This document shows positions 7,997-49,434 of a stretch of 64,000 nucleotides of DNA, piece after piece (the first letter of the stretch is position 1; every line of letters begins with the position of its first letter). The DNA is from Patescibacteria group bacterium. GTDB taxonomy: Bacteria; Patescibacteriota; Minisyncoccia; UBA6257; JAAZHW01. The stretch covers positions 206,233 to 270,232 of the forward strand of contig JAOAGL010000001.1 of assembly GCA_026415775.1 (NCBI GenBank). The letters are read 5' to 3'. The notes beneath the pieces are model-generated. The model was not told where the DNA came from. It saw only the letters and a list, made by a program, of their open reading frames with translations, and did not search any database. Made by a program: the position numbers and the translations under genes.

Positions 7997-8036
7997 TATC
8001 TATTGACAAAAAGAAAATTTATTTCTAATATTTATT

Positions 8037-20550: not shown

Positions 20551-20622
20551 GGCCTGGTAGCCAAGTGGTAAGGCAACGGTCTGCAAAACCGTTACACGTG
20601 GGTTCGATTCCCACCCAGGCCT
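20551..20622 (+). tRNA. tRNA-Cys(GCA)
   Basis: GGCCTGG...CCAGGCC-T. Anticodon arm ACGGT-CTGCAAA-ACCGT. T-arm GTGGGTTCGATTCCCAC. Confidence 0.85.
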
Positions 20623-20640
20623 CTTAACAATTTGGAATGC

Positions 20641-20729
20641 GCCCGGGTGGCGGAATTGGCAGACGCGTTGGACTCAAAATCCAATGACCCTCACCGGTCG
20701 TGAGAGTTCGAGTCTCTCCCCGGGCACCA
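20641..20729 (+). tRNA. tRNA-Leu(CAA), type II, with the CCA end encoded
   Basis: GCCCGGG...CCCGGGC-A-CCA. Anticodon arm TTGGA-CTCAAAA-TCCAA. It has a long variable arm and T-arm GAGAGTTCGAGTCTCTC. Confidence 0.85.
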
Positions 20730-26031: not shown

Positions 26032-28137
26032 ATGCGAGAATATTCATTAGAAAAAACTAGAGATATCGGAATTATTGCTCATATTGACGCTGGGAAAACA
26101 ACGGTTTCCGAGCGTATTTTATATTACACTGGTATTTCTCATAAAATTGGCGAAGTTCATGAAGGAGAAGCGATTATGGATTGGATGGAGCAAGAAAGAG
26201 AGAGGGGTATTACTATTACCGCTGCGGCAACAACTTGTTTTTGGACTCAGACTTATAAAACTCCAGAAGAGCGAGCAAAGAAAGAATTTCGCATTAATCT
26301 TATTGATACGCCTGGTCACATTGATTTTACAGTTGAAGTTCAGCGATCTCTTCGCGTTTTGGATGGGGCGGTTGTTGTTTTTGATGGAGTAGCTGGTGTC
26401 GAACCGCAATCAGAAACCGTTTGGCATCAAGCAGATAAATTTCACGTGCCTCGCATTTGTTTTGTTAATAAATTAGATAGAATGGGTGCTAGTTTTACGC
26501 GTTCTCTCCAATCTATTCGTGAACGATTGAATCCTAATGCAATGCCAGTTCAATTAAATATTGGATTGGAATCTGAATTTGAAGGAATTATTGATCTTTT
26601 AACAATGAAAGCTTTTAATTTCACCGGTGAAAAAGGCGAATTTATTAATGAGATGGAAATCCCCAAAAATTTAATAGATGAAGCTAAAAAATTAAGGGAA
26701 GAATTAGTGGAAAAAATTGTTGAAACCGATGAAGAATTGATGAATCGTTATTTAGAAGGCAAAGAAATTTCAATTGAAGAATTAAGAAAGGCGTTAAGAA
26801 AAGCGACAATTGAAAGTAAAATTGTGCCAGTTTTTTGTGGTTCGGCTTTGAGAAATAAAGGCGTTCAATTTTTACTTGATGGCGTTGTTGATTATTTGCC
26901 GTCACCTTTGGATTTGCCGCCGACGAAAGGCTTTGATCCAAAAAGCGGACAAGAAATTATTAGACAGGTTAGCGATAACGAACCTTTTACTGCTTTAGCT
27001 TTTAAAATCGCTACTGATCCATTTGTGGGAAATTTAACTTATTTTCGTGTTTATTCAGGAACTCTTAAGAGGGGCAGTTATATTTTAAATGCTACCAAAG
27101 GGCAAAAAGAACGAGCGGGAAGAATTGTTAGAATGCACGCCAATCATCGCGAGGAGGTAGAAGAAGTTTTTGCTGGAGATATTGCCGCACTCGTTGGTTT
27201 AAAATCAACCACAACTGGTGATACTTTATGCGACGAAGAACATCCTATTATATTAGAAAAAATTGAATTTCCAGAACCAGTTATTTCAATGCGTATTGAA
27301 CCAAAAACTAAAGCTGATCAGGAAAAAATGAGTATTGCTTTAAGAAAATTAGCCGAAGAAGATCCTACTTTTCAGGTGGCGAGCGATCAAGAAACAGGCG
27401 AGACAATTATCAAAGGAATGGGCGAATTACACTTGGATGTTTTGGTTGATCGCATGCGTCGAGAATTTAAAGTTGAAGCTAATACCGGTCGGCCGCAAGT
27501 TGCTTATAAAGAAACTATAAAAGCGATGTCTGAGGCGGAAGGAAAATATATTCGTCAGAGTGGTGGTCGTGGTCAATATGGTCATGTTTGGTTGAGAGTG
27601 GAACCTTTAGAACGCGGAAAGAACTTTGAATTTGTAGATGAAATTAAAAGTGGTGCTATTCCGCAAGAATTTATTCCTGCTGTTGAGAAGGGCGTGAAAG
27701 AAGCAGCTCAGAAGGGTGTTTTGGCGGGTTATCCATTACAAGACATTCGTGTAACTTTATACGATGGTTCATTCCATGAGGTTGATTCTTCGGAGTTTGC
27801 CTTCAAAATTGCCGCTTCCATTGCTTTACAAGATGCTGTAAAAAAAGCAAATCCTGTTTTATTGGAGCCAATCATGAAAATTCAAGTGATTGTTCCTGCT
27901 AAATTCTTAGGTGAGGTAACAGGCGATTTGAATTCTCGTCGGGCGCGCATTGAACAAATTTCGGATCGTTTGGATAGTAAGGTAATTGACGCAAAGGTGC
28001 CTTTGGCTGAAATGTTTGGTTATGTAACAAACTTGCGTTCTTTAACTGAAGGCCGAGGATTTATTACAATGGAATTTGACCATTACGAAGAAGTGCCGAA
28101 AAACATTGCTGAACAAATTATTGCGGGCCGCAAGTAG
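26032..28137 (+). CDS. fusA: Elongation factor G
   Basis: [13 protein letters not shown]...[13 protein letters not shown]...[10 protein letters not shown], 701 aa. Confidence 0.97.
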
Positions 28138-28163
28138 TTCTCTCCAAGAAGGAGATGAAATTT

Positions 28164-28197
28164 GGGCCGCTTGGAGAGAACTCCAAGCGGCCCTTTT
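28164..28197 (+). terminator. Strong intrinsic terminator after fusA
   Basis: GGGCCGCTTGGAG-agaa-CTCCAAGCGGCCC-tttt, a 13-bp stem. Confidence 0.8.
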
Positions 28198-28206
28198 AAA
28201 AATTTA

Positions 28207-28235
28207 TTTACAAAATCAGTCGAAAAAATTATAAT
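28207..28235 (+). promoter_or_regulatory. Candidate sigma70 promoter for ileS
   Basis: -35 TTTACA at 28207-28212, a 17-nt spacer, then -10 TATAAT at 28230-28235, about 16 nt ahead of the ileS ATG. Confidence 0.5.
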
Positions 28236-28251
28236 AAGAATATTAAAAATT

Positions 28252-31122
28252 ATGCAGTTATTTCCCGAAATAGAAAAACAAATTATTAAATTTTGGAAAG
28301 AAAATAAAATTTTTGAAAAATCTGTTGCTAAAGATGCGCCAAAAGGCGATTATATTTTTTATGATGGACCGCCTTTTGCCACAGGAACACCTCATTACGG
28401 ACATTTAGTAGCTAGTTTAATGAAAGATATAGTGCCACGTTACTTTACTATGAAAGGATATCGTGTTGAAAGACGTTGGGGTTGGGATTGTCATGGCATG
28501 CCAATTGAGAATATTGTTGAAGAAGCTTTAGATTTAAAAACTAAAAAAGATATTGAAAAAATAGGTATTGATAAATTTAATGAAACGTGTCGTCAAAGCG
28601 TTTTAACATATGCCGAAGAATGGAAGAAGGTAATTGAAAGATTTGGACGCTGGGTTGATATGGAAAATCCGTATAGAACGATGGACCTTGATTATATGGA
28701 AAGTATTTGGTGGGTTTTTAAGGAATTGTGGGATAAGGGATTAATTTACGAAGATTACAAAGCAATGCATATTTGTCCTCGGTGCGAGACCACTTTATCT
28801 CAATATGAAGTTTCAGAAGGATATCTTGATGTTGAGGATTTAGCAGTAACAGTAAAATTTGAATTAAAAAACGAACCAAAAACTTATATTTTGGCATGGA
28901 CGACAACGCCATGGACTTTGATTGGTAATGTAGCTTTGGCTATTGGTGAAAATATTGAATATGTTAAATTTGAGATTAAAAACCACCCTTCTTTAAATGG
29001 TATTTATATTGCCTCCAGAAACTTTTTTGAAAAATTAAAAAATAAATTTGAACAGGAAAATTCAACAATTGATTTGGAATTTATTGAAGTAGTTCCTTCT
29101 GAAAAATTAATTAATCAAAATTATATCCCCTTATTTGATTACTATCTTAATAAGCCATTAAATAATAAAGAACGTCTTTATACGATTCAATCGGCCAATT
29201 TTGTTACAGTAGAAGATGGTACTGGGGTTGTCCACATTGCGCCAGCTTTTGGTGAAGAAGATATGATGTTAGGGAAAGAAAAGCAACTGCCTTTTATTCA
29301 GCATGTTGGTTTGGATGGAAGATTTAAAGAGGAGGTAGTTGATTTTAAAGGGTTGCCAGTTAAACCAAAGGAAGCGCCAACTTCTACTGATCAGAAAGTA
29401 ATTGAATTTTTACAAAAGAAAAATTTAGTTTTTGAAGTAGAAAAATACACTCATAGTTATCCTCATTGTTGGCGTTGTGATTCGCCGTTGTTGAATTATG
29501 CAACCACTTCTTTATTTGTGAAGGTAACAGAAATAAAACCACAACTTTTAAAAAATGCTGAAATTATCAATTGGGTGCCAGCACATTTGAAAGAAGGCAG
29601 GTTTGGTAAATGGTTGGAAGGCGCTAGAGATTGGGCAATTTCTCGACAAAGATATTGGGGGTCGGTCATTCCTTTGTGGGTATGTCAAAATTGCGGTGAG
29701 AAAAAAGTTGTTGGTTCAATTAAAGAATTAGAAGAGCTTTCTGGTGAAAAAGTAGAAGATCTTCATAAGCATTTCATTGATAAAATTACTTTAAAATGCG
29801 AAAAGTGTGGCGGTATTATGAAGCGCATACCTGATGTTTTAGATTGTTGGTTTGAATCTGGTTCAATGCCTTATGCTCAAATGCATTATCCATTTGAGAA
29901 TAAGGAAAAATTGGAGAAGAACTTTCCTGCTGAGTTTATTGCTGAAGGCGTCGATCAAACACGCGCCTGGTTTTATTATCTTCATGTTATAGCCACCGCC
30001 TTAAAGAATAGTGCTGCTTTTAAAAACGTAATTGCTAATGGCATTGTTTTGGCTGAAGACGGAAGAAAAATGTCTAAACATCTTAAAAATTATACTGATC
30101 CTTTAGAGGTTTTAGAAAAATACAGCGCTGATGCTGTTCGGTATTATTTAACTACTTCGCAAGTAATGAAAGCTGAGGATTTATGTTTTTCAGAGAAAGA
30201 AGTTGATGAGGTTTATAAAAAGGTAATTTTGATTTTGTTGAATGTTTTGAGTTTTTATAAGCTTTATGCTGGCAAAGAAATAAATAAATTAATTCTGCCA
30301 CTTGAGAATGTGTTGGATATTTGGATTGTAACGCGATTAGAGTTGCTAAAGAAAGAAATGACTGAAGCATATGATACTTATGATTTGCCAAAAGCTAATC
30401 GACCAATTGCGGAGTTTATTGATGATTTGTCAACATGGTATGTAAGGCGTTCTCGCGAGCGCTTTAAAAATGGCGATGAAAAAGCTATTGCTACCTTGCG
30501 TTATGTATTGATGGAATTGTCAAAATTAATTGCTCCAGTTATGCCATTTTTGGCCGAGCATCTTTATCAAGAATTAAAAGGTGAAAAAGAATCGGTGCAT
30601 TTGGAGGATTGGCCAATAGTAAACGAACAGCTTATTGATAAAGAAGTGATTGAACGAATGAAAAAGACACGTGAGGCAGTTGAAATAGGATTAGCTTTAA
30701 GGTCTGAAGCTCAAATTAAAATTCGCCAACCATTAAAACAAATTCAGTTTGCTGATGAGGAGTTGTTTAATCAATTATACGAAGATTTAGTTAAAGATGA
30801 GCTGAATGTAAAGGAAATTGCGTTGGGTCCCAAAAATTGGTTAGACACAGAAATTCCAGCCGACTTAGAAGAAGAAGGTATATTGCGAGAGTTAATACGT
30901 CGCATTAATCAATTAAGAAAAGAAAAAGGTTTAAGTGTTGATGATAAAGATGTGGTTTTGGAGTTTAAAATAGACAATGAAAAATTGAGGAGCGTTGTTG
31001 AAAAATTTAGCGAGGAAATTAAGAAAAAATGTTTGAGTTCAGAGATAAAATTCGGCGAAGCATTAGATGGCAAGGAATTTGAAATTAATGACGAAAAAAT
31101 CAAAATTGCTTTATTGAAATAA
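28252..31122 (+). CDS. ileS: Isoleucyl-tRNA synthetase
   Basis: PPFATGTPHYGHLV contains the HIGH motif and KMSKH is the KMSKS motif. The track's ORF is N-extended from a TTG that lies inside the fusA terminator, so the real start is ATG 28252. Confidence 0.95.
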   Translation: MQLFPEIEKQIIKFWKENKIFEKSVAKDAPKGDYIFYDGPPFATGTPHYGHLVASLMKDIVPRYFTMKGYRVERRWGWDCHGMPIENIVEEALDLKTKKDIEKIGIDKFNETCRQSVLTYAEEWKKVIERFGRWVDMENPYRTMDLDYMESIWWVFKELWDKGLIYEDYKAMHICPRCETTLSQYEVSEGYLDVEDLAVTVKFELKNEPKTYILAWTTTPWTLIGNVALAIGENIEYVKFEIKNHPSLNGIYIASRNFFEKLKNKFEQENSTIDLEFIEVVPSEKLINQNYIPLFDYYLNKPLNNKERLYTIQSANFVTVEDGTGVVHIAPAFGEEDMMLGKEKQLPFIQHVGLDGRFKEEVVDFKGLPVKPKEAPTSTDQKVIEFLQKKNLVFEVEKYTHSYPHCWRCDSPLLNYATTSLFVKVTEIKPQLLKNAEIINWVPAHLKEGRFGKWLEGARDWAISRQRYWGSVIPLWVCQNCGEKKVVGSIKELEELSGEKVEDLHKHFIDKITLKCEKCGGIMKRIPDVLDCWFESGSMPYAQMHYPFENKEKLEKNFPAEFIAEGVDQTRAWFYYLHVIATALKNSAAFKNVIANGIVLAEDGRKMSKHLKNYTDPLEVLEKYSADAVRYYLTTSQVMKAEDLCFSEKEVDEVYKKVILILLNVLSFYKLYAGKEINKLILPLENVLDIWIVTRLELLKKEMTEAYDTYDLPKANRPIAEFIDDLSTWYVRRSRERFKNGDEKAIATLRYVLMELSKLIAPVMPFLAEHLYQELKGEKESVHLEDWPIVNEQLIDKEVIERMKKTREAVEIGLALRSEAQIKIRQPLKQIQFADEELFNQLYEDLVKDELNVKEIALGPKNWLDTEIPADLEEEGILRELIRRINQLRKEKGLSVDDKDVVLEFKIDNEKLRSVVEKFSEEIKKKCLSSEIKFGEALDGKEFEINDEKIKIALLK

Positions 31123-31778
31123 TGTTTGAAGATTTAAAAGGAAAAATTTTTGCGGTATATAAACCAAAAGGCATTACTTCCGCAGCTGTTGTTGAAATTA
31201 TTAAAAGAAAAACAAAAGAGAAGGTAGGACATGCTGGCACTTTAGATCCTTTAGCAAAAGGCGTTTTAGTTGTTGGAGTTGGTCGTTCTGCTACTAAAAA
31301 TTTAAATGAAGAATTAAAAAAAGAAAAAGAGTATTTGGCTTTAATTAAATTAGGCGAATTTAGTTCAACTGATGATGATGAGGGTGAAAAAATTAAAATA
31401 GAGATTAGTAAAAAACCGAGCAAAGGAGAAATTTTAGATATACTTAAAAAATTTACTGGTAAATTTTGGCAAAAACCCCCTCTTTTTAGTGCTATTAAAG
31501 TTAAAGGCAAAGAAGCTTATAAATATGCACGAATGGGTAAAAAAATTTCTTTACCAGAGCGATTGGTTGAGGTAAAAAAAATTGATTTAATTTATTACCG
31601 CTGGCCTTATTTGAAAATTAAAATTGTTTGCGGGCCTGGTTTTTATGTGCGTTCTTTGGCGCGAGATATTGGAGAAACACTTAGAACTGGCGCTTATCTT
31701 AAAGATTTGGAACGTATTCGGGTAGGTGATTTTAAGAAAGAAAATTGTTTAACTTTAGGATTTTTCTTCCAGAAATAA
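31122..31778 (+). CDS. truB: tRNA pseudouridine-55 synthase
   Basis: IFAVYKPKGITSAAVVEIIKRKTKEKVGHAGTLDPLAKGVLVVGVG is the TruB catalytic-Asp motif. Confidence 0.9.
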   Translation: MFEDLKGKIFAVYKPKGITSAAVVEIIKRKTKEKVGHAGTLDPLAKGVLVVGVGRSATKNLNEELKKEKEYLALIKLGEFSSTDDDEGEKIKIEISKKPSKGEILDILKKFTGKFWQKPPLFSAIKVKGKEAYKYARMGKKISLPERLVEVKKIDLIYYRWPYLKIKIVCGPGFYVRSLARDIGETLRTGAYLKDLERIRVGDFKKENCLTLGFFFQK

Positions 31779-31823
31779 ATTTGGAAAGAATGTATTTTTT
31801 TGATAAAATAACAGTAATATTTT

Positions 31824-33236
31824 ATGCTGAAATTTTTTAATAATCTGACGCACAAACTGCAAATATTTAAACCTTTAAAAGATAAAAAGGTTGGTTTGTA
31901 TACTTGCGGTCCAACAGTTTATTCTTATGCCCATATTGGTAATTTACGCACTTATATTTTCGAGGATGTATTAAAACGCGTTTTGAGATATAACAATTAT
32001 AAAGTTAAACACGTGATGAATATTACTGATGTTGGACATTTAACTTCGCAGGCTGATAGCGGCGAGGATAAAATCGAATTAGCAGCAAAAAAAGAAGGAC
32101 AAAATGCTTGGCAGATAGCCAAATTTTATACCGAAGCTTTTAAAAAAGATATTCAAGCGCTTAACATTTTAGAACCAGATATTTGGGTGAAAGCAACTGA
32201 TACCATCAAAGATCAAATAAAATTAATTCAGATTTTGGAGAAGAAAGGTTATATTTATCGCATTACCGATGGAATTTATTTTGATACTTCAAAACTAAAA
32301 AATTATGGCCGTTTATGGCCGAAAAAACTAAAAAAGAAAATCAAAGAAATTGATTTAGAAAAATATGCACGCATTGAAAAAATTGAAGGAAAGAAAAATT
32401 TAACTGATTTTGCTTTATGGAAATTTACGCCACTTGGCGTTAAAAGACAAATGGAGTGGGATTCGCCATGGGGCAGGGGTTTTCCTGGTTGGCATACGGA
32501 GTGTGTGGTGATGGCTTCGAAATTTTTGGGCATTCCTTTTGATATTCATTGCGGCGGGATAGACCATATTCTAATTCATCATACAAATGAAATTGCTCAA
32601 GCCGAGGCGGCTTATGGTAAAATTTTGGCTAATTATTGGCTGCATGGCGAGTTTTTAATTTTAGATAAAGGAAAAATGTCAAAATCCGAAGGCAATTTTA
32701 TTACTTTGAATGATTTAATAGCTAAAAATTTTAATCCTTTGGCTTATCGATATTTTTGTTTTACAACTCATTATCGGCAAAAATTAACTTTTTCATGGGA
32801 AGGATTAGCTGCTGCCCAAGCTGCTCTTAATCGGTTGTATGAAAAAGTTAAAGAGTTTAAAAAACAAGTGTCAAAGACTCAATTAAATTTGGGACAAAAA
32901 GCTAAAAAGTATCAGAAAAAATTTAATTATTTTATTAGTGAGGATTTAAAAATTCCTCAAGCATTGGCTTTGATGTGGCAGATGATAAAAGATAAAAATA
33001 TCAGTGCTTCTGAAAAATATTATTTACTTTTGGATTTTGATAAAGTTTTGGGTTTAAAATTAGCAGAATTAAAAGAAGAAAAAATTCCTTCTAAAATTTT
33101 GAAATTGGTTAATGAACGAGAGATGTACCGCCAGCAAAAAAATTATCAAAAAGCTGATGAATTAAGAGAAAAAATTAAAAACCTCGGCTATTTAATTGAG
33201 GATACCCCTTCGGGCCCGGTGGTGCGGAAAAGATAG
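31824..33236 (+). CDS. cysS: Cysteinyl-tRNA synthetase
   Basis: [17 protein letters not shown] carries the HIGH-class motif. ...WHTECV...KMSKSEGN is also present. Confidence 0.95.
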
Positions 33237-33299
33237 GAGTTGTTGACAAAATAGAAATTTTAATTTATTTTAAATTTAGTCGATTAATTTTTTGCAAAC

Positions 33300-33470
33300 A
33301 TGCAAAAAGTTATACTACCGAAAGTAATTACTAAAAATAAAAGCAAAATTATTAGAGAAAGTGGTTGTTGTTTTCGAAGTTGTGGTGGGGTACCTTGTGT
33401 TTCAATTTATAATAATTCGGAAAATTTTAAAAAGTTAAAATTAACAAAAAGAATAAAGAAAATTAAATAA
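33300..33470 (+). CDS. Unannotated 56-aa Cys-rich small ORF and candidate RiPP precursor peptide: MQKVILPKVITKNKSKIIRESGCCFRSCGGVPCVSIYNNSENFKKLKLTKRIKKIK
   Basis: I translated this by hand from the 270-nt cysS/ABC-F intergenic gap; at 56 aa it falls below the 60-aa floor of the ORF track. It is the first ATG after an in-frame TAA. A 56-codon open frame is improbable by chance in AT-rich DNA. Four Cys fall within 13 residues, and the C-tail is Lys-rich. The ABC-F RBS and ATG sit 35 nt downstream. Like most genes in this window it has no SD. Confidence 0.5.
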   Translation: MQKVILPKVITKNKSKIIRESGCCFRSCGGVPCVSIYNNSENFKKLKLTKRIKKIK

Positions 33471-33505
33471 AGGTTCTTTAAAAAATAAAAAAATGGAGGT
33501 GAAAT

Positions 33506-35203
33506 ATGCATATCAATATAAAAGATATTTGGAAAAGTTACGGGAATAAAAATGTTCTTAGGGGTATATCTTTTTCTCTAGCGCCCGGCGAAAAGGTAGC
33601 GTTAGTCGGGCATAATGGCGTTGGCAAAAGCACGCTTCTTAAAATTATTGCCGGTTTAGAGGCATTTGATAAAGGAGAGGTGTTTTTGCCGCGTAATGCG
33701 TGTATTGGATATTTGCCGCAGGAATTTGTTTTTCGAGAAGATGAAACTGTGAAGAATTGTTTTTGGCGTATAGTCGGAATTGCCGAATTAAAATTTCATA
33801 TGGAAGAATTATTAAATAATCTAGATGACGAGGAAAAAATAAAAACGTTTACTGAGCTTCAAGAAAAATATCAAAAGTTGGGGGGAGAAAATTTTGATTA
33901 TAAGATTAAAATTATTCTGGCTGGATTGGGATTGGCAAAAATAGAATTACATCAAAAATTAAAAGAATTGAGCGCTGGTGAAAAAACAAAAATTATTTTG
34001 GGAGCTATTTTGCTTAAAGGAGCAGATCTTTTATTATTGGATGAGCCAACTAATAATTTAGATATTCCAGCTTTAATTTGGTTAGAAGAATTTTTAAAAG
34101 CGACATCAGCTACTTGTTTGGTAGTTTCTCATGATAAAAAATTTTTAGATAATATTACTTCGCGAGTTTTAGAAATTGATTGGGAAACTAGAAAAGTAAA
34201 CATATTTCGAGGGAAATATTCTGAATATTTGGATTTTAAGATAAAACAACTAAATCGATTAAAAGAAGAGTTCCGCCGTCAACAAGAAAAAATCAATAGT
34301 TTAAAAAAAGTTGCTGAAAAAAATAAAGATTGGGCTCGAAAAGGTAATTATCAATTGCCACCGGACAATGATAAATATTGTCGAGGAATGCGAAGAGATA
34401 GATCTGCTAAATTAGGAAGAAAAGCTGCGGTAATACAAAAGAAATTAGAAAGAATAAAAAAAATTGATTTACCAATTGAACGAGAACCACTAACTATTGA
34501 TTTAAATGCGCAGTTAATTGCTTCAAAACCAAAAATTATTTTAAAAGAGGTAATGGTTGGCTACAAAGATAGTTTTCAATTGAGACCGATTAATTTAGAA
34601 ATTGCATATGGAGATAGGATAGGAATTCTTGGTTTAAATGGGGTAGGTAAATCCACTTTATTAAAAGTGCTTAGTGGAAGAATGTTGCCTTTAAAAGGAG
34701 AAATAAAAATAGGGGAATCATTGATTATTGGAGATTTAATTCAAGAGGAAAATAATTTACCGCTTGATAAGACCTGTTTGGATTTTATTGAAGAAAAGAC
34801 TGGTTGGCAAAAAGAAAAGGCTATCAATTTAATTCATAAATTTAATTTTTCTTTTGATGAAGCAACCCAAACGATTAAAACTTTAAGTTCTGGTCAGCGT
34901 ACTCGCTTATTGTTGGCATATTTTTCTGCAATCTCTGCGAACGTATTAATTTTGGACGAACCAACTAATCATTTAGACCTTGAAGCTATAGAAGCATTAA
35001 AAGAAGTTTTAAAAACGTACAAAGGAACACTCATTGTAGTTTCGCATGATAGGGATTTTATAGAACAAATTAAATTGACAAACTTCTATGTTATAGAAGA
35101 CGGAAAGTTAAAACAATTGTCGAGTTACAGCGATTATCTTGCTAAAAGTGTTTTAATTGCTAAAAGAATTATTCGCCAATTAAATTTAGAGCGTCGTTAT
35201 TAA
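33506..35203 (+). CDS. ABC-F family ATPase with two tandem nucleotide-binding domains and no TM domain (EttA/Uup/ARE-like ribosome-associated factor)
   Basis: NBD1 has GHNGVGKST / LSAGEKTKI / LLLLDEPTNNLD. NBD2 has GLNGVGKST / LSSGQRTRL / ILILDEPTNHLD. A ~100-aa basic inter-domain linker lies between them. The RBS is GGAGGTG. Confidence 0.85.
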   Translation: MHINIKDIWKSYGNKNVLRGISFSLAPGEKVALVGHNGVGKSTLLKIIAGLEAFDKGEVFLPRNACIGYLPQEFVFREDETVKNCFWRIVGIAELKFHMEELLNNLDDEEKIKTFTELQEKYQKLGGENFDYKIKIILAGLGLAKIELHQKLKELSAGEKTKIILGAILLKGADLLLLDEPTNNLDIPALIWLEEFLKATSATCLVVSHDKKFLDNITSRVLEIDWETRKVNIFRGKYSEYLDFKIKQLNRLKEEFRRQQEKINSLKKVAEKNKDWARKGNYQLPPDNDKYCRGMRRDRSAKLGRKAAVIQKKLERIKKIDLPIEREPLTIDLNAQLIASKPKIILKEVMVGYKDSFQLRPINLEIAYGDRIGILGLNGVGKSTLLKVLSGRMLPLKGEIKIGESLIIGDLIQEENNLPLDKTCLDFIEEKTGWQKEKAINLIHKFNFSFDEATQTIKTLSSGQRTRLLLAYFSAISANVLILDEPTNHLDLEAIEALKEVLKTYKGTLIVVSHDRDFIEQIKLTNFYVIEDGKLKQLSSYSDYLAKSVLIAKRIIRQLNLERRY

Positions 35204-35228
35204 AAAGAAAAAACGACGCTCTATTTTT
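35188..35228 (+). terminator. Hairpin plus T-run overlapping the ABC-F stop; a possible attenuator or partial terminator ahead of the rSAM gene
   Basis: AGAGCGTCGTT-(13-nt loop)-AACGACGCTCT-atttttaa. Confidence 0.4.
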
Positions 35229-35243
35229 AATTGTAGTTTTATT

Positions 35244-36494
35244 ATGAAACAGAAAATACAACAATTAGTAAAAATTAGAAGAGAAAAGCGCTATTTTCTT
35301 GCTTATTTTATAGAATATAGAAAAATTTTATTGGTTAATGAAATTGGAGCAAGGATATTGGAATTATTTTTTAATGAAAATAAATCTATTTTAGAAATTG
35401 CTGAATTTTTTATGAGGGGAGGAAAAAAATATAAAAAATCAGATATAAAAAATAATATTAGAAAATTTTTAAAAAAAGTTGCAAAAGAATTAGATAAAAG
35501 AGATTCGGGTGAATGGCCAATAATAGAAGGAGATTTTTTAGAAACCCCCATAGGAGTAGAACTTCAAATAAATACAACTTGTAATTTAAGATGTAAACAT
35601 TGTTTTCAAAGTAATTATAGTCGCATAATGCCATTTTCTCGCATAAAAAATATTCTATCGCTTTTATATAAAAATAATATATTTGAAATTAATTTAGTAG
35701 GCGGCGAACCATTTTTACATCCTAATATTTTCGAGATAATAGAAATGTGTTGTAAAAAATACAATTTTGCTGTAAATGTGATCACCAATGGTACATTATT
35801 AACAAGCAAAATTATTAATTTACTTTCTAAACATAGAGACAAAATAGCATTATTAATAAGCCTCGAAGGAGTGAAGGATACAAACGATTTAATTAGAGGA
35901 AGAGGAACATTTAAAAAAGTTGAGAGGACAATAAAAAAATTAAAGAAAAAAAGGATATATTTTGAATTCTCTTTTACTTTGAACGCATTGAATATTAAAT
36001 ACTGGAAACAATTTTTGTTATACGCTCATAAATTAAAAGCCCCTTGCAATTTTAATTTATTCAAACCATTTTCCAATAAGCAGAAATATTTAGTTATTCA
36101 CCCATTTGATTATTTCGAATTTATTAATGAGTTATTTATTTTTAAAAAAATAAAAAAAATAGAAACCGGTATTACAGATGCTGCTATATGGTCGTATGTG
36201 AATAAATTAATGCCACGCAATCAATGCAAAGCAACTTTAACAGGTTTAAATATTAATGCAAAAGGAGAAATGGTTCCTTGTGCTTTTTTTGATGAAGTTG
36301 GTTATTATAAAAACTTGCCAACGATAGATAAAAATTTTTTAAAAAATTGGAAATATAATTATTGGTTTAAGGATTTCAGAAAATATAATTTAAGAGAATG
36401 TCAATTTTGTTCTTATATTTTTAATAAATCTCGCGCTGCTTTTAATCCGTATGGTTTAAGCGCTTTTAAAAAATGGCAAAGAATTCGTCAATAA
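35244..36494 (+). CDS. Radical SAM enzyme with an N-terminal PqqD-like RiPP recognition element and a C-terminal Cys-containing SPASM/twitch-like extension; a candidate peptide-modifying maturase
   Basis: Residues ~20-90 (ILLVNEIGARILELFFNENKSILEIAEFF...) fit the PqqD/RRE winged-helix pattern. The cluster motif is CNLRCKHC (CxxxCxxC) and GGEPFLH is the SAM-binding motif. The C-terminal region carries about 5 Cys (APC, NQC, VPC, RECQFC). Confidence 0.85.
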   Translation: MKQKIQQLVKIRREKRYFLAYFIEYRKILLVNEIGARILELFFNENKSILEIAEFFMRGGKKYKKSDIKNNIRKFLKKVAKELDKRDSGEWPIIEGDFLETPIGVELQINTTCNLRCKHCFQSNYSRIMPFSRIKNILSLLYKNNIFEINLVGGEPFLHPNIFEIIEMCCKKYNFAVNVITNGTLLTSKIINLLSKHRDKIALLISLEGVKDTNDLIRGRGTFKKVERTIKKLKKKRIYFEFSFTLNALNIKYWKQFLLYAHKLKAPCNFNLFKPFSNKQKYLVIHPFDYFEFINELFIFKKIKKIETGITDAAIWSYVNKLMPRNQCKATLTGLNINAKGEMVPCAFFDEVGYYKNLPTIDKNFLKNWKYNYWFKDFRKYNLRECQFCSYIFNKSRAAFNPYGLSAFKKWQRIRQ

Positions 36495-36883
36495 AAAAGA
36501 AATTTTTTTGATATTTAGCCATTTTAATTTAATAGATAAATATTACAAATTTTTACTTTGTTTTCACTATAATTTTTATCGATTGATTTTTTGTTTCTTA
36601 ATGTAAACAGTGTACATTGGAAAAATTGCCGAACTAGATATTTAATAAATAAAATGACGCACATTATTAATTCATGATTTTTTGAAAAATGCTCCACTGA
36701 TTCATAAATGCTTTCCAAATTATTAATTAAGCGGTGCATTAATTGAAAATCAGAAACTTTTTGCATTAAATAATCGTATGACACTCGGTTTTCAATAATG
36801 GTTTCATTAATAATGTTTGCAGTTGAAAAAGGGTTTTGAGGAATGCGGGTCGGTAGTTTATATTTTTTAGCGCTTTCTTATAT

Positions 36884-37441
36884 ATGTTTTTTATTATTTT
36901 ATTAATTATTATCTTTATTTTGTTCACGCATATTTATGCGGGTATTATTGCTGCTCCATTTGTATCCACACCTAAAAATTATATAAGAAAAGCATTAGAA
37001 ATATGCCAACTTAAAGAGGGAGAAAAGATTTATGATTTGGGTTCAGGTGATGGTCGTGTTTTAATTATAGCAGCCAAGGAATTTAATGCCGAGGCTTTGG
37101 GTTTTGAGCTTTCTTATTTTTTATATCTTATTTCAAAAATTAATATTTTTTTGCGTGGTCTTTCAAAAAAAGCCAAGGTGAAATGGTCTAATTTTTATGA
37201 AGAAGATTTAAGTCTGGCAGATGTGATATTTTGCTGGTTAACACCAAAAGCTTTCCCCAAATTGGTCAATAAATTTAATCAAGAATTAAAGATTGGAACC
37301 CGCGTTATTACTTATTCTTCGCCTCTTGGTTTTTGGCAGCCAGAAAGAGAGGTTGAACTTCAGAGCGAAGGAATAAAATTTTTTGGAAAAACTTTAATCA
37401 AGCCAGCCAAAGTCAAAATATTTTTTTATTGTAAAAAATAG
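36884..37441 (+). CDS. Small class I SAM-dependent methyltransferase with an N-terminal hydrophobic anchor
   Basis: IYDLGSGDGRVLI is motif I and DVIFCWL follows it. Confidence 0.6.
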   Translation: MFFIILLIIIFILFTHIYAGIIAAPFVSTPKNYIRKALEICQLKEGEKIYDLGSGDGRVLIIAAKEFNAEALGFELSYFLYLISKINIFLRGLSKKAKVKWSNFYEEDLSLADVIFCWLTPKAFPKLVNKFNQELKIGTRVITYSSPLGFWQPEREVELQSEGIKFFGKTLIKPAKVKIFFYCKK

Positions 37442-37667
37442 ACAGCATTTTATTTAAAAAATCTACATTTTTACAGATTTACTTCTTCAAAATTCAAAGA
37501 ACCTTTATTTTTGAGAATTTTTTAATTAAAAACTCATTTATTAGGAAATCTTGACACAATTCAAAAAATATCCTAAATTAAAATCAGAACTTTAAAAATA
37601 TATGTCTTGGATTCTGCGGGAAATCCGCGGAAAATCTCAACCAAGACAGAAAAAGGGGAGGTGTGAG

Positions 37668-38543
37668 GTGAAAAAGATTTTATTTTTTATTTTTGTTTTA
37701 ATTTTTCTGGTAATGGTGGTTGTTCCCACTGAAGCCCAGCAGCAGAAAAAAAGGGATAGGTGGGAGTTAGAACTGAGCTACGGGCAGTTTTGGGTAGTGA
37801 AACACGATCTGCCATCTAATCTTATATTTGTGAGAGAAAAAAATCCAGATTTTCAGCTGGCCCTGAGGTTGAGGATTTGGCGAGGGTGGTATGTAGGGAT
37901 ACTTGCGGGAATGAAAAAAGAAACTCAAAATGAATACTTTACAGATGAGATTTATACCAACTATTGGTGGCTAGAAGATAGGTTCGGAAACTTTCTGGCT
38001 AAGAATTATATAGAAAGAGACATCAGTGTTTTTAAAACAGCTCCTTATATTGGGGCAGAAACAAAATTAAATCTACTCACAATTAAATTTTCAAAATCCA
38101 TAGGGTTAACTCCCTATGGGAGGGCAGGGATAAAGAGGTGGTTTGCACAAACTGAAGGATTTTTTCACACAAAGGACTACATTCTTTACGATCTAGATAA
38201 AAGTACAAGTACTCCTTACATGATTTATAATTATACTGCTACTCCTGTAGGAGTAGGAAGATACCATGGAAAGGTAACAATTTGGTTGGCCAACCCCGAC
38301 GGTACGAAAGGCCCTGTAGTATATGAGGATGAGTGGCAGAATTATATGTCAAATATGAGGGCGGGTGGTATCTTTTTTTATGGTGGAGGAATGTCTTTGC
38401 GGATAGGAAAAGTTGGGTTAAATGCAGAATGGATTTTTGAAAGGCGGAAGGATAATATTTTTGATGGAGAGAATAAAAAGTTTATTGGAAGTAGAAAATT
38501 CCAACACGCCATGTGGCGGGTTGGGCTGGGATATAGATTTTAA
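37668..38543 (+). CDS. Secreted protein with a signal peptide and an outer-membrane beta-barrel-like C-terminus ending in Phe; start is GTG 37668
   Basis: The RBS AAGGGGAGG lies 6-7 nt before GTG. The signal peptide is KKILFFIFVLIFLVMVVVPTEAQQ. The C-terminal half shows alternating-hydrophobic beta-strand patterns and ends ...AMWRVGLGYRF. The N-terminal 22 codons in the track are probably not translated. Confidence 0.5.
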   Translation: MKKILFFIFVLIFLVMVVVPTEAQQQKKRDRWELELSYGQFWVVKHDLPSNLIFVREKNPDFQLALRLRIWRGWYVGILAGMKKETQNEYFTDEIYTNYWWLEDRFGNFLAKNYIERDISVFKTAPYIGAETKLNLLTIKFSKSIGLTPYGRAGIKRWFAQTEGFFHTKDYILYDLDKSTSTPYMIYNYTATPVGVGRYHGKVTIWLANPDGTKGPVVYEDEWQNYMSNMRAGGIFFYGGGMSLRIGKVGLNAEWIFERRKDNIFDGENKKFIGSRKFQHAMWRVGLGYRF

Positions 38544-38662: not shown

Positions 38663-41600
38663 ATGAATCACATATTATCAAAATACAAGCTTTTCTTATT
38701 AATCGGTCTATCTATTTTTCTTCAATTATTAGTCACCTATAACTTTACAAACATTAGCCAAGCAGCAATATCAAGGGGTTGCGCAACCTATGATGAATGT
38801 ACGACAAGGCAGGATTGTGAAGCAATCGGTGGAGTGTGGATTGTTACTGGGCCAGGTGGTATGGTTCAACCTGGTGTAATTATTGAAGAAGAGGGTTATT
38901 GTGTGCCACCAGGCGGAACTTCTCCCACACCAACATCAACAAAAACTCCAACACCAACAGCAACTCCTACTTCCACTTTAACGCCAACCCCAACTTCAAC
39001 TACAACTCAGACTCCGACGCCAACTTCCACTCCCACCCCCACTCCAACTCCAACAGGATGCGGAAGTTATACGACCATGGGGGATTGTGAGGCGGATGAA
39101 AATTGCGAATGGGTATTTTTATATGCAGATCCAAACGGATTAGAAGGTTATTGTAAAGATGCGGAACCGCCTCCGCCGGGATGTCTGCCAAGTTCTTTAA
39201 CTTATTCTAATTATAATGCCAATTTTACTTATCGCAGTGAATGTTACAATGTTATTAATCAAATTGGGAGCTCCAATATAATTAAAAGTTTTACTACCTC
39301 TCCAGAGTTTTTGAATTTTTATTCTTCTGGCTTGCCTGCTTTTAAAACAGGTGATTGTCCAGGTTCAAGCTTAAAAACTCAAGTTTGTTTTTATCCTGAC
39401 CCAGATAATTCTGCTTTTCGGCCAGCTTGGTTTTTTAAAAAAGCTTCTTCTTATACTTTTCAGAATAGTTGTGTGAATTGTACGATGGGAGGTGTAATGT
39501 CTGATAAAAATATAAGCGTGTATAATACTTCTTTATACAATGTACCTTGTGGCCCTTCTTATTCTACAGCCCCAGCCATTTCTTTAACTGCGACTGAAAA
39601 TACTGCTTCGGCACAATACAGACATTCGGTAAGCATCAATAAAGGCAAATGGGAAGGATATTCTATTAATGATGCGAAAAAGACTTTGATTTATGATTTT
39701 TCAATAGATAAAACCAAAATTTCTCTTGGCGATTCAGTGACTTTACATTGGAAAATAATAAATGGACCGGGTTATAGTTCAACTGGTGGTGGTTCAACTG
39801 GTGGAGGTGGATCCTTTCCTCCTGGCGAACCTCGTACACGACAAGAAGACCCTAATGCGCCGCCACCGGGTTGGGATGGAGGCGGAGGATTCCTTTATCC
39901 ATTGAAACAATTCAGTTTGGAGACGGTTAAAAATACTATTGCTCAATTATTTGGTATTTCTAAAAAAGCCGAAGCTTTAGAAAATTATCCTACCGAAGCA
40001 GAATGTTTGGCTCATGGTTGTGATTGGGTTTATGGCGCTTATAATCCGTGGGATCCTAATGCCCCAGCAGGTTGTATTTGTCCTTTAAATACTCAAATTG
40101 TGGTTCCGTCGCCTTCTACTCCTCCTTTGATTGCTTTGTTTATCGGCAATGCCACTTGTCAAAAAACTCCCCAGGAATCAGTTAATTGTCCTTTTCAGCC
40201 AAATCAAATTTATCCCTTAGTTACTTCTGTAAGCAATATTGAACCGACTAATTCTTTTTCGGTTAAAAATATCTTTCAAAAACTTTTTGGTTTAATTTCT
40301 CCAACTCAAGCGCAAACTGTTAGCGTCTTTGAAAAAACTTATGAAGGAACCCTAACTCTTTATCCTCAATCGCCAACCAATTTTTATTTGATTACTTATG
40401 GAATTATTGGGGAGGGTCCGGGATATATTTTATCCGAGCCAGTTCAAGTTGATATTGCCACTTATAATCCTTGGGTTGATTTGAAAGTTCAGAAATCACC
40501 AGGTCATGAATTTGTTGATGGTCCGGTCTGGATTAATAGTGGCGATGATGTTGTTCTCAAATGGAGTTCTAACGATGTTGATAGTTGTACAGCCAGCGCT
40601 AGCCCAACCAACAATCAATGGAAAGGAAACGTTTTATTACAAAACGAGGGATTGACTATCTCTGATATTGTTACCTCAACTACCTTTATGATTTCATGCC
40701 ATGGTTTGAATGGTTCAACAGTAAATGATTCAATAACGGTGACAATTGGGAAAACCGCATGGGTTAATTTAAGCGCTGATATAAATGGTTCTTTGAATGA
40801 TGGACCCGTGACTATTACTCAAGGGAAAAATTTAACTTTAACTTGGACTTCTGCTAACGTCACGAGTTGTTCTGCGAGCAGCGCACCTTTAAATTCTAGT
40901 TGGAATGGAAATGTGGCTACATCTGGTACTAAATTAATTACAAATCTTCAAGAATCAACAGATTTTATAATCACTTGCGACAAAGGAGCTTCGGACCATG
41001 TGATGGTCAATGTGGTTCCACAGACAGCAACGGTTAACATAGTGGTGAGATTAAATGGAGAGGCGCTTAATAATGCTGCTGTAAATTATGTATTAACCGG
41101 TCCAACAACCATTCAAGGAAGTAAATCAGGAGCTTTCAACATTGCTATTTCTTCTGCTTTGGGCGATTCCTATACCTTAACTTATCTTTCTGGTGGTCCA
41201 GAAGGTGCTAGTTTTGTTGGTTCAGAATCTCAATCTAGAATCATAAAACCGGGCGATGAGGTAACGTTCTATTTTGATTTTTCAACGCAAGATTTGTGTC
41301 ATATTGATGTTTCGGCCTTGTATAACGGACAGCCATGGAGTGGTAAATTATCCTACCTCTTAATAGGCCCGACTATTTTGACAGGTAATACAGTGCCTTA
41401 TACATTCCCTGCTGTACCGCCGGGTGTTTACTATATCTCTTATATTAGTGGTGGACCCGATAATTTTTTGGGTGTGGAATTAAAAAATGCTTTAACTTGC
41501 CCAGCGAAAGGTTCAATTACTTTTGGTTTGAAATTCGGAACTTCGCCGACGCCAACGCCGATTATACCGCCAGCTGAAATAGGCGATAACCCACCAACGG

Positions 41601-42181
41601 CCAAAATCGGCTGCGTGGCTGATGATATGATTAATTGTAGCGGTACCATTGATGGTGATTCTAATACTCCAACTATTACTTTGTACAATGCTTCCATTGA
41701 TCCAGACGGAGATATAAAAACTTGTCAATGGGCAGTAGCAGAAAATCCGTCCTTAAACAAAACCAGTTGTTCGCCGTTAATAATTGGTGATACGATTGGC
41801 AATTATAGTGTAACGTTGACGGTTATTGATTCCAAAGGACATTCTAGTCAGACATCAATTGTTGCCAAAGTGAAAGATGTGACGGAGTTAACGCCAAAAT
41901 TTGTTTGGGATCCTTATGTTCCGATTGTTAACAAGGAAACAAGATTTTTTGACAGGTCATTAACGCCGAAGGGCACATCATTGAAGACATGGAATTGGAG
42001 TTTTGAAGGGGCAAATATTGCTACTTCAACAGAGCCCAATCCAACCGTTATCTTTACAAGCATTGGTCCGAAAAAGGTTACTTTAACTGTTAAAAATTCA
42101 GCTAACGAAACAAAAACAATTACTCAAACAATCGATGTCCGAGCGGCAGCGCCAGAGTGGAAAGAGGTAATTCCTAGATAA
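38663..42181 (+). CDS. Large secreted cell-surface protein (1172 aa) with Cys-rich modules, a Thr/Pro linker, tandem Ig-like repeats and C-terminal PKD-like domains
   Basis: There is an N-terminal signal peptide. Two 4-Cys modules (CATYDECTTRQDCEAIGG...YC and CGSYTTMGDCEADENCEW...YC) flank a TPTPTS linker. A Gly-rich GGGSTGGGGS linker follows. Two ~95-aa tandem repeats each carry a conserved Cys pair, and PKD-like segments (KFVWDPYVPIVNKETRFFD...) lie near the C-terminus. Confidence 0.7.
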   Translation: MNHILSKYKLFLLIGLSIFLQLLVTYNFTNISQAAISRGCATYDECTTRQDCEAIGGVWIVTGPGGMVQPGVIIEEEGYCVPPGGTSPTPTSTKTPTPTATPTSTLTPTPTSTTTQTPTPTSTPTPTPTPTGCGSYTTMGDCEADENCEWVFLYADPNGLEGYCKDAEPPPPGCLPSSLTYSNYNANFTYRSECYNVINQIGSSNIIKSFTTSPEFLNFYSSGLPAFKTGDCPGSSLKTQVCFYPDPDNSAFRPAWFFKKASSYTFQNSCVNCTMGGVMSDKNISVYNTSLYNVPCGPSYSTAPAISLTATENTASAQYRHSVSINKGKWEGYSINDAKKTLIYDFSIDKTKISLGDSVTLHWKIINGPGYSSTGGGSTGGGGSFPPGEPRTRQEDPNAPPPGWDGGGGFLYPLKQFSLETVKNTIAQLFGISKKAEALENYPTEAECLAHGCDWVYGAYNPWDPNAPAGCICPLNTQIVVPSPSTPPLIALFIGNATCQKTPQESVNCPFQPNQIYPLVTSVSNIEPTNSFSVKNIFQKLFGLISPTQAQTVSVFEKTYEGTLTLYPQSPTNFYLITYGIIGEGPGYILSEPVQVDIATYNPWVDLKVQKSPGHEFVDGPVWINSGDDVVLKWSSNDVDSCTASASPTNNQWKGNVLLQNEGLTISDIVTSTTFMISCHGLNGSTVNDSITVTIGKTAWVNLSADINGSLNDGPVTITQGKNLTLTWTSANVTSCSASSAPLNSSWNGNVATSGTKLITNLQESTDFIITCDKGASDHVMVNVVPQTATVNIVVRLNGEALNNAAVNYVLTGPTTIQGSKSGAFNIAISSALGDSYTLTYLSGGPEGASFVGSESQSRIIKPGDEVTFYFDFSTQDLCHIDVSALYNGQPWSGKLSYLLIGPTILTGNTVPYTFPAVPPGVYYISYISGGPDNFLGVELKNALTCPAKGSITFGLKFGTSPTPTPIIPPAEIGDNPPTAKIGCVADDMINCSGTIDGDSNTPTITLYNASIDPDGDIKTCQWAVAENPSLNKTSCSPLIIGDTIGNYSVTLTVIDSKGHSSQTSIVAKVKDVTELTPKFVWDPYVPIVNKETRFFDRSLTPKGTSLKTWNWSFEGANIATSTEPNPTVIFTSIGPKKVTLTVKNSANETKTITQTIDVRAAAPEWKEVIPR
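38920..39060 (+). repeat. Low-complexity Thr/Pro-rich linker inside the surface-protein gene: (ACN CCN)n, encoding TSPTPTSTKTPTPTATPTSTLTPTPTSTTTQTPTPTSTPTPTPTPT
   Basis: The nucleotide periodicity is visible directly. It accounts for the spurious antisense ORFs at 38899-39191. Confidence 0.7.
40475..41035 (+). repeat. Two tandem ~95-aa Ig-like intragenic repeats, with approximate boundaries at 40475-40762 and 40763-41035
   Basis: VDLKVQKSPGHEFVDGPVWINSGDDVVLKWSSNDVDSCTASASPTNNQWKGNVLL... aligns with VNLSADINGSLNDGPVTITQGKNLTLTWTSANVTSCSASSAPLNSSWNGNVAT.... Confidence 0.5.
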
Positions 42182-48928: not shown

Positions 48929-49000
48929 GCCGATGTAGCTCAGCGGTAGAGCAACTGTTTTGTAAACAGTAGGTCGTCGGTTCGAATCCGACCATCGGCT
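48929..49000 (+). tRNA. tRNA-Thr(TGT)
   Basis: GCCGATG...CATCGGC-T. Anticodon arm ACTGT-TTTGTAA-ACAGT. T-arm GTCGGTTCGAATCCGAC. Confidence 0.85.
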
Positions 49001-49014
49001 CCGACGATCTAGAT

Positions 49015-49098
49015 GGGCGGGTGGCAGAGTGGTCAATTGCAACGGTCTGTAAAACCGTCGCCCTAGTGGCTACGCAGGTTCGAATCCTGCCCCGCCCA
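49015..49098 (+). tRNA. tRNA-Tyr(GTA), type II
   Basis: GGGCGGG...CCCGCCC-A. Anticodon arm ACGGT-CTGTAAA-ACCGT. It has a long variable arm and T-arm GCAGGTTCGAATCCTGC. Confidence 0.85.
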
Positions 49099-49149
49099 CT
49101 TAAAATACTTGCTCTTTGAATTGTTTCAATTAAAATAAGAGAAATTATT

Positions 49150-49221
49150 GCCAGAGTAGTTCAGTGGTAGAACGCATTCTTGGTAAGAATGAGGTCGAGG
49201 GTTCGATTCCCTCCTCTGGCT
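49150..49221 (+). tRNA. tRNA-Thr(GGT)
   Basis: GCCAGAG...CTCTGGC-T. Anticodon arm CATTC-TTGGTAA-GAATG. T-arm GAGGGTTCGATTCCCTC. Confidence 0.85.
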
Positions 49222-49253
49222 CTGGAAATTAAAAGTCGTCTAATATCTAGAAT

Positions 49254-49412
49254 ATGCCACAGGAAAATTTAATTAAACTTCAATGCTCGGTGTGTAAAAG
49301 GATTAATTATTACACCCGAAAAAATAAAAAAACTATTCAGAAAAAATTAGAAATAAAAAAATATTGTCCTTTTTGCGATAAAAGAACAGTACATAAAGAA
49401 GTGAAAAGATAA
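49254..49412 (+). CDS. rpmG: 50S ribosomal protein L33 (52 aa, CxxC...CxxC zinc-ribbon form), unannotated in the ORF track
   Basis: My hand translation gives [52 protein letters not shown]. It lies between tRNA-Thr and tRNA-Trp, as in the conserved rpmG/tRNA-Trp/secE neighbourhood. Confidence 0.8.
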
Positions 49413-49434
49413 AAGACCTTGAAAAAGGTTTTTT

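Follow-up and report, generated by a model that had tools for sequence, protein, structure and literature searches.

A conserved cysteine-rich peptide encoded beside a radical SAM enzyme and ribosome-protection genes in Patescibacteria suggests a new ribosome-targeting modified peptide

Results

A 56-aa peptide is encoded upstream of ABC-F and radical SAM genes

We analysed a 64,000-nucleotide stretch of DNA (the window) from contig JAOAGL010000001.1 of a Patescibacteria group bacterium, and in it a small open reading frame (ORF) on the plus strand at 33300..33470. The ORF runs from ATG to TAA and encodes the 56-aa product MQKVILPKVITKNKSKIIRESGCCFRSCGGVPCVSIYNNSENFKKLKLTKRIKKIK, whose cysteines C23, C24, C28 and C33 are spaced CC-x3-C-x4-C, exactly as a preliminary description of this DNA had given them. 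On the same strand follow the genes for a 565-aa ABC-F ATPase of the ribosomal-protection, or antibiotic resistance (ARE)-like, type (33506..35203), a proposed immunity or sensing factor, and for a radical S-adenosylmethionine (rSAM) peptide maturase (35244..36494). These three genes form a cassette of about 3.2 kb within the order fusA, ileS, truB, cysS, peptide ORF, ABC-F, rSAM and a methyltransferase, all on the plus strand, with cysS ending at 33236 directly 5' of the peptide ORF. The peptide belongs to a large undescribed family of the Patescibacteria (Candidate Phyla Radiation, CPR), and its place beside rSAM and ribosome-protection genes suggests a new ribosome-targeting modified peptide.

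Cysteine makes up 7% of the peptide but only 0.9% of the window ORFs of at least 200 aa, so that four cysteines within 56 residues are unusual and the rarity of cysteine noted in the preliminary description was borne out. The window has a GC content of 33%, and lysine accounts for 9.9% of its long ORFs. Three regions can be distinguished in the peptide. Residues 1-19 (33300..33356) form a leader in which P7 and V9 are fixed at -15 and -13 from the core glycine. The core E20-S-G-C-C-F-R-S-C-G-G-V-P32 (33357..33395) is the presumed site of modification. Residues 33-56 (33396..33467) make up a variable C-terminal tail, Lys-rich in the window peptide, that is a probable follower segment.

A promoter-like TTGACA-17-TATTTT site lies at 33243..33271 on the plus strand, where it matches the consensus at 10/12 positions (a consensus match only). 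It was the best plus-strand site found by the consensus scan within 32900-37000, and its TTGACA is retained in L006, the locus whose rSAM enzyme is 86% identical to that of the window. A transcript from this putative promoter is predicted to have a 5' untranslated region of about 20-25 nt, and the peptide and ABC-F genes are probably co-transcribed from it. The gap from the peptide stop codon to the Shine-Dalgarno sequence of the ABC-F gene is 35 nt, and that sequence, GGAGGTG at 33495..33501 on the plus strand, was perfect in the Shine-Dalgarno scan. No terminator or attenuator was found between the peptide ORF and the ABC-F gene, the fold of 33278-33530 giving z = -0.73 against shuffled sequences. 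A structured RNA in place of a gene was rejected, since this fold did not exceed the shuffles and no Rfam family reached its gathering threshold near the ORF.

The peptide is a member of a family with an invariant three-cysteine core

A single-sequence word-index search of 5.8 billion proteins matched the window peptide to itself alone, and neither Pfam nor NCBIfam contained a match to it. The impression of an orphan that this search gave was wrong, as homologues were recovered through synteny and then with a profile. With a profile built from seven peptides, a profile word search yielded 150 clusters of 'hypothetical proteins' of 45-88 aa. HMMER, run in full over 1.84 billion representatives, matched 40, of which 25 had E<=1e-10. 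Among the 40, P0248, P0257 and P0260 were considered as multi-core precursors and rejected as long repeat or junk proteins. The family as used here comprises at least 137 members of 45-88 aa that carry the core, and all positional counts refer to these 137. No RiPP (ribosomally made peptide with post-translational modifications) precursor model in NCBIfam matched the window peptide or 78 family members.

The family core reads E(-2)-x-G-C-C-[L/F]-[R/T]-S-C-G-G-x-P. All members (137/137) share its G, C, C, C and G, and nearly as constant are S and the second G, each in 135/137, P in 133/137 and E in 132/137. The fourth cysteine, C33 of the window peptide, is present in only 10/137 members; the four-cysteine core of the preliminary description is thus a three-cysteine core in the family. 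In the leader, proline occupies -15 in 106/137 members and isoleucine or valine occupies -13 in 113/137. The core is followed by a tail of 0-51 aa (median 24) whose sequence is unconserved. The Lys-rich tail described earlier is real in the window, but it is the trait of one subfamily and variable elsewhere: tails of the F-subfamily have a median net charge of +4, and those of the L-subfamily one of +1. One family member, in the region L126:5650-8185, has an 87-aa extended, Cys-rich C-terminus.

Substitution patterns show that the ORF is a real, translated gene. In L006, the closest relative by its rSAM enzyme, a 57-aa ORF occupies the same place and differs from the window ORF by an in-frame 3-nt insertion and by synonymous changes in the core (GGG>GGA, GTA>GTG and CCT>CCA). 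The invariant residues, compared in 50 distinct DNA versions, are encoded by all four Gly codons, all four Pro codons, both Cys codons and both AGY and TCN Ser codons. This use of synonymous codons indicates selection on the protein and not on the DNA or RNA, and conservation at the protein level across the family excludes a chance ORF.

One locus departs from this pattern. At L014:4815-4967, from a Portnoybacteria genome, the peptide has a degenerate core, EFGFCFRGHGGKS, with one Cys only, and the rSAM enzyme has lost one C-terminal Cys (CRARSY instead of CQFCSY). Neither an ABC-F nor an Erm gene lies within 5 kb on either side at this locus. The cassette of L014 may be decaying or have been repurposed.

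The peptide gene is linked to the radical SAM gene in permuted architectures

Starting from the rSAM gene, we found the homologous small ORF in all relatives examined (L006-L014, 40-86% identity). These include L008 and L010, with rSAM identities of 54% and 53%, and, at 40-44%, the four genomes L011 (Saccharibacteria), L012 (Falkowbacteria), L013 (Patescibacteria) and L014 (Portnoybacteria). Only these last four of the 80 loci returned by a scan of genome contigs with an rSAM profile are true members of the family, the rest sharing a generic CNLRCKHC pattern. The preliminary description had held that ABC-F/rSAM pairs lacking a conserved small ORF would speak against the peptide; we found the opposite, the small ORF being present in every related locus.

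The converse approach, a scan of metagenome contigs by the peptide motif alone, yielded 58 loci, which were scored jointly with the earlier loci by tblastn and ORF clustering. The rSAM gene was seen in 44 of the 52 non-redundant loci, and the remainder, bar one, are cut by a contig end or rearranged (L096). The exception is L126, where the usual rSAM is replaced by an HExxH protein (6557-7246) followed by a different radical SAM protein (7303-8094, CNNRCEGC). The earlier proposal of a leader-core-tail RiPP precursor for the nearby rSAM enzyme is supported by both scans. The preliminary description placed the peptide next to the maturase gene. Most loci have the peptide immediately upstream of rSAM; in the window the rSAM gene lies 1.77 kb downstream and the ABC-F gene intervenes.

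The tightness and order-independence of this linkage also bear on whether the peptide is modified at all. An unmodified small Cys protein, such as a metal-binding or ribosome-associated miniprotein, might merely neighbour the rSAM gene, and a few members do match the NuoE Fe-S motif weakly. The best of these matches (E = 0.007) is not significant, and a NuoE identity was rejected. Linkage to an rSAM enzyme with a RiPP recognition element (RRE) is the defining context of a RiPP precursor. We therefore regard an unmodified or chance product as very unlikely, its chance-ORF version being excluded by the family-wide conservation of the protein.

The ABC-F gene was treated as a bystander in the preliminary description, a view that our counts overturn. 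Among 15 non-redundant loci having at least 2 kb on both sides, it adjoins the peptide/rSAM pair in 13, and is hence a conserved member of the cassette. Gene orders include pep-ABCF-rSAM (as in the window), ABCF-rSAM-pep, pep-rSAM-ABCF and ABCF-pep-rSAM, and in some loci the ABC-F gene is convergent or divergent, on the opposite strand. The distances of ABC-F and rSAM proteins correlate (Mantel r = 0.62, a value reached by 0/2000 permutations). In two loci the cassette ABC-F is broken, into three ORFs of 51, 348 and 184 aa at L149:8453-10131, on a 103-kb contig of a metagenome-assembled genome labelled 'Clostridium sp.', and into two pieces at L129:6695-8379. Frameshifts, pseudogenes or errors of assembly may account for these breaks. 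The 'Clostridium sp.' label of L149 and the 'Woesearchaeota' label of L151 may reflect mis-binned CPR contigs.

These architectures largely refute the model of a regulatory upstream ORF, in which the peptide would be a ribosome-stalling leader or attenuator controlling the downstream ARE ABC-F gene, as for vmlR, msr, vga and lmrC. The window ORF does lie 35 nt upstream of the ABC-F gene on the same strand, and leader-peptide attenuation is common for ARE ABC-F genes. In most loci, though, the peptide directly precedes rSAM, and the ABC-F gene follows rSAM, precedes the peptide or lies on the other strand. The peptide is also retained in the ABC-F-less loci L014, L113, L122 and L140. A length of 45-88 aa with an invariant Cys core is also unlike known leader peptides, and no terminator or antiterminator fold was found in the window (z = -0.73, as above). 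A purely regulatory ORF is thus the most improbable of the alternatives that we considered.

The radical SAM enzyme resembles peptide maturases

The window rSAM protein matches PF04055 (E = 1.4e-21). Its CxxxCxxC motif (C113/C117/C120, 35580-35603, plus strand) is invariant in 27 sequences of the family. Towards the C-terminus lies a twitch-like set of cysteines, C328, C346, C386 and C389 (36225-36410, plus strand). The first three are invariant in the family, and the window protein has C389 besides. As the full seven-Cys SPASM motif is missing, the C-terminal domain is twitch-like. PqqD/RRE (PF05402) was detected in 10/27 family members (best E = 7e-11) and SPASM (PF13186) in 15/27.

Structural comparison pointed in the same direction. 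In an AlphaFold2 model of the enzyme (pLDDT 90.7), residues ~9-84 are predicted to form an N-terminal beta3-alpha3 unit that is typical of an RRE. The top structures found with this model by Foldseek were SuiB (E = 2e-20, TM-score 0.68), CteB, SkfB, anSME and TigE, and a profile search of the PDB gave SkfB as the best match (E = 2e-28). All of these closest solved structures are peptide maturases. Together with the RRE domain found in the family, this SuiB/CteB/SkfB-like fold lends the RiPP precursor proposal further support.

The enzyme reached no curated NCBIfam cutoff, scoring 86.5 bits against 265 for the mycofactocin maturase, 81.8 against 850 for AlbA, 71.9 against 340 for PapB and 51.1 against 300 for SkfB, which indicates a new subfamily. 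Known sactipeptide, ranthipeptide (six cysteines in forty-five residues, SCIFF), mycofactocin and pyrroloquinoline quinone (PQQ) families were rejected as identities for the system, as both the precursor and the maturase miss their curated NCBIfam scores.

That mycofactocin gave the best of these scores, albeit at 86.5 bits far below 265, raises the alternative of a RiPP or peptide-derived cofactor, similar to PQQ or mycofactocin, with a non-ribosomal role in redox, metal binding or signalling; the link to ABC-F would then be shared regulation or translation assistance. The high conservation of the core is in line with such a role, its three clustered cysteines could bind metal, and a K-P-x-V leader motif resembles PqqA. 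Against a cofactor, the enzyme falls far below every cofactor-maturase cutoff, and ORF clustering of the loci revealed no recurring cofactor-pathway partner genes. It would also leave unexplained why ABC-F and Erm, two unrelated protein classes, were recruited independently and in permuted positions. Overall we judge a cofactor to be unlikely.

The ABC-F ATPase is of the ribosomal-protection type

The window ABC-F protein scored 409.6 bits with NF000355 (ribosomal protection-like ABC-F), above the cutoff of 380, whilst housekeeping models failed on it (EttA 304 against 599, Uup 296 against 900, YbiT below cutoff). It contains PF00005 twice, with PF12848 on the linker and no transmembrane domain, and its 565 aa align end to end with ABC-F proteins. 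Cassette ABC-Fs sampled elsewhere behaved alike, with NF000355 the best model in 10/10 and its cutoff passed in 9/10.

An extended linker is a hallmark of ARE ABC-Fs. The linker region of the window protein is 178 aa long, compared with 177 in VmlR, 150 in EttA (7msc) and 152 in Uup, and is thus about 26-28 aa longer than its EttA/Uup equivalent. When the linker alone was used as the query, the best matches were VmlR, VgaA-LC and LsaA, at full length. On these scores and the linker length we class the window ABC-F as a ribosomal-protection (ARE) type.

Erm-type methyltransferases and DUF2268 proteases occur in some loci

The window has no Erm homologue and no DUF2268 protease. Elsewhere, a gene for an Erm-type 23S rRNA methyltransferase adjoins the peptide/rSAM pair in about seven loci (L096, L107/108, L111, L113, L122, L123 and L147). 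These genes lie at L113:7441-8436, L122:2780-3721(-), L147:3514-4410(-), L108:6785-7654(-), L096:490-1365(-), L111:2859-3569 and L123:2202-2915(-). Four of the proteins were scanned (L108, L113, L122 and L147). Those of L113, L122 and L147 scored 240-247 bits with NF000499 (cutoff 212) compared with 159-175 for ksgA, and that of L108 fell just short of the cutoff at 208. The order of the two scores was reversed in a genuine KsgA from L135, with ksgA above NF000499. No ABC-F was visible on the contigs of the Erm loci L096, L113, L122 and L123.

A second recurring neighbour is a predicted DUF2268 Zn-protease (PF10026, HExxH), found directly 3' of rSAM in 6/52 non-redundant loci (L012:6271-6921(-), L121:1703-2359, L131:2-727, L140:7515-8216, L141:7573-8217(-) and L142:2633-3286(-)). 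It is a candidate leader/follower peptidase. At L140, annotation of the neighbours gave nothing informative besides DUF2268. The peptide is thus genetically locked to an RRE-rSAM-twitch enzyme, usually accompanied by an ARE-type ABC-F and sometimes by Erm or DUF2268.

ORF clustering of the loci revealed no exporter recurring among the neighbours of the cassette, and at most loci exporter and protease are missing. One explanation of this would be an intracellular circuit, in which the rSAM-matured peptide binds the ribosomal tunnel or peptidyl-transferase centre of its own producer and is antagonised by ABC-F or Erm. Such a circuit could serve as a brake on translation, a switch to dormancy or a module of addiction, and it would also explain the almost invariant core, which is maintained across deeply divergent Patescibacteria. 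The cassette can lie among translation genes (fusA, ileS, truB and cysS in the window, pheS/pheT at L014), and ABC-Fs of biosynthetic clusters can be signal transducers instead of immunity proteins. Housekeeping neighbours carry little information, however, because CPR genomes are compact, and export might run through general systems. Antibiotic producers classically protect themselves with an ARE-type ABC-F together with Erm, which speaks against a circuit. An intracellular circuit thus appears rather unlikely.

Other genes in the window

Downstream of the rSAM gene lies a gene for a SAM-dependent methyltransferase (36884..37441, plus strand), a membrane-anchored protein with a hydrophobic helix at its N-terminus. 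It is matched best, though weakly, by an archaeal protein-lysine N-methyltransferase (73.7 bits, cutoff 200), and an unusually long gap of 390 nt (36495-36883) separates it from the rSAM gene. It was considered as a further cassette member and rejected; its conservation extends to L006, the 86%-identity relative, alone, so that it probably lies outside the cassette.

Two further plus-strand genes encode exported or membrane proteins. The first (37602-38543) encodes a 313-aa protein with a signal/transmembrane segment and a sub-threshold match to the PF13505 beta-barrel family (E = 0.0014; 19.3 bits against 28.7), which is curious as Patescibacteria are generally thought to have no outer membrane. 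The second (38663-42181) encodes a secreted protein of 1172 aa with Thr/Pro-rich linkers, many paired cysteines and faint matches to PKD domains, probably a surface or adhesion protein. Rfam identified eight tRNA genes in the window, at 48929-49506 (a cluster of four, at 48.9-49.5 kb), 20551-20726, 13771-13853(-) and 53113-53198; these are unrelated to the peptide.

Discussion

We consider it probable that the peptide is a RiPP precursor whose core is matured by the rSAM enzyme, that its product targets the peptidyl-transferase or exit-tunnel region of the large ribosomal subunit, and that ABC-F or Erm proteins protect against the product and/or sense it. The parts of this proposal differ in strength. 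That the leader would be bound by the RRE of the rSAM enzyme, which would then modify the GCC[F/L][R/T]SCGGxP core, is well supported; within the leader, we infer that the P/V motif is the RRE-binding site. By analogy with the nearest structures, SkfB, CteB and SuiB, the most likely chemistry would be Cys-derived intramolecular cross-linking. The ribosome target and the immunity role we infer from gene association.

In the proposed pathway, the N-terminal leader would dock on the RRE through its K-P-x-V/I motif, held at a fixed distance from the core. The enzyme would next introduce one or more cross-links from the three conserved cysteines of the invariant core, most likely thioethers of the sactionine or ranthionine type, as with SkfB and CteB. 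Leader and variable tail would be removed afterwards, in some lineages by the co-located DUF2268 Zn-protease. On the large subunit, the mature peptide may then bind near the exit tunnel or peptidyl-transferase centre. The ARE-type ABC-F, or in other lineages the Erm-type 23S rRNA methyltransferase, would sense this product and/or shield the ribosomes of the producer. ABC-F and Erm proteins are mechanistically unrelated and both act at the peptidyl-transferase centre/A2058 tunnel region, which makes this the most likely binding site of the product. We also count in favour of the ribosome link that the locus with the degenerate core, L014, has neither ABC-F nor Erm.

Several observations weigh against this proposal. 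The cross-link chemistry and the ribosome target rest on homology and gene association, and the RRE and SPASM domains of the window enzyme itself fall below the Pfam thresholds. Erm-like proteins of the cassette also pass or approach the KsgA cutoff. A dedicated exporter and protease are absent from most loci, the window included, which is unusual for a secreted antibiotic. The core hardly varies across deep CPR lineages, and in this it resembles a cofactor or housekeeping molecule more than a fast-evolving bacteriocin. ABC-Fs such as LmrC can be regulators rather than immunity proteins (PMC8546547). The clusterings of ABC-F and rSAM proteins are only partly congruent, which together with their correlated distances suggests co-inheritance with some replacement. 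Finally, the Shine-Dalgarno scan found no such sequence upstream of the window peptide ORF. The same is true of many essential genes at 26032-33236 (fusA, truB and cysS) and of the rSAM gene of the window, so that its absence is no argument against translation. A Shine-Dalgarno sequence is present in 17/40 window ORFs of at least 200 aa, and translation initiation in this genome is largely independent of it; GC-richer members of the peptide family have a strong GGAGG upstream.

If the proposal of a ribosome-targeting RiPP holds, the peptides would form a new RiPP class and, to our knowledge, the first radical-SAM-matured peptide predicted to act against the peptidyl-transferase/exit-tunnel region. 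The genomes of Patescibacteria are tiny, and little secondary metabolism has been recognised in them. The cassette would provide a small, widespread and directly testable three-gene system from uncultured bacteria. Its immunity determinants, ARE ABC-F and Erm, are the gene classes behind clinical resistance of the macrolide-lincosamide-streptogramin type, and such peptides would be a natural selective pressure that may maintain these genes in the environment. The window ORF also illustrates that ORFs under the 60-aa annotation floor can anchor whole cassettes.

Comparison with known systems

SkfA/SkfB, CteA/CteB and the SCIFF-type ranthipeptides share with the present system a short precursor encoded beside a maturase that combines an RRE, a radical SAM domain and a C-terminal Fe-S (twitch/SPASM) domain, as well as a Cys-rich core. 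Unlike the peptides of the sactipeptide, ranthipeptide and SCIFF families, the window peptide matches none of their models, and its rSAM enzyme lies far below their equivalog cutoffs. The core here is also placed mid-peptide and followed by a variable tail of 20-30 aa, and the cassette carries ribosome-protection genes in place of an ABC exporter and protease. SuiA/SuiB, which produces streptide through a Lys-Trp cross-link, has the same RRE-rSAM-SPASM layout, and SuiB was the best structural match. In contrast to that system, the core here has no Lys/Trp pair, the enzyme has only four conserved C-terminal cysteines and the identity is 15-16%.

The presence of an ARE-type ABC-F and/or an Erm-type methyltransferase beside biosynthetic genes is shared with producers of lincosamides, macrolides and streptogramins. 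The lincomycin cluster, for example, encodes both the ABCF LmrC and the 23S rRNA methyltransferase LmrB (PMC8546547). The products of those actinomycetes are polyketides, non-ribosomal peptides or amino-sugar compounds, and they have dedicated exporters, whereas the present system would make a RiPP, in Patescibacteria, and its cassette has no exporter. Klebsazolicin and phazolicin are RiPPs that bind the ribosome exit tunnel. Should the proposed target be right, the present peptide would resemble them as a ribosomally made peptide that blocks the tunnel/peptidyl-transferase region. They differ in being azole-containing linear peptides, made by a YcaO/dehydrogenase and encoded with exporters, whilst the cassette here has no YcaO. 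We know of no ABC-F or Erm immunity for either of them.

Neither the peptide family, its core motif nor an rSAM-RiPP/ABC-F/Erm cassette in Patescibacteria was found in Pfam, NCBIfam, Rfam or the full-text literature, which was searched with motif strings included. The components of the system are of known kinds, an RRE-rSAM RiPP system, an ARE ABC-F and Erm; what is new is the way they are combined, the core motif and the clade that hosts them.

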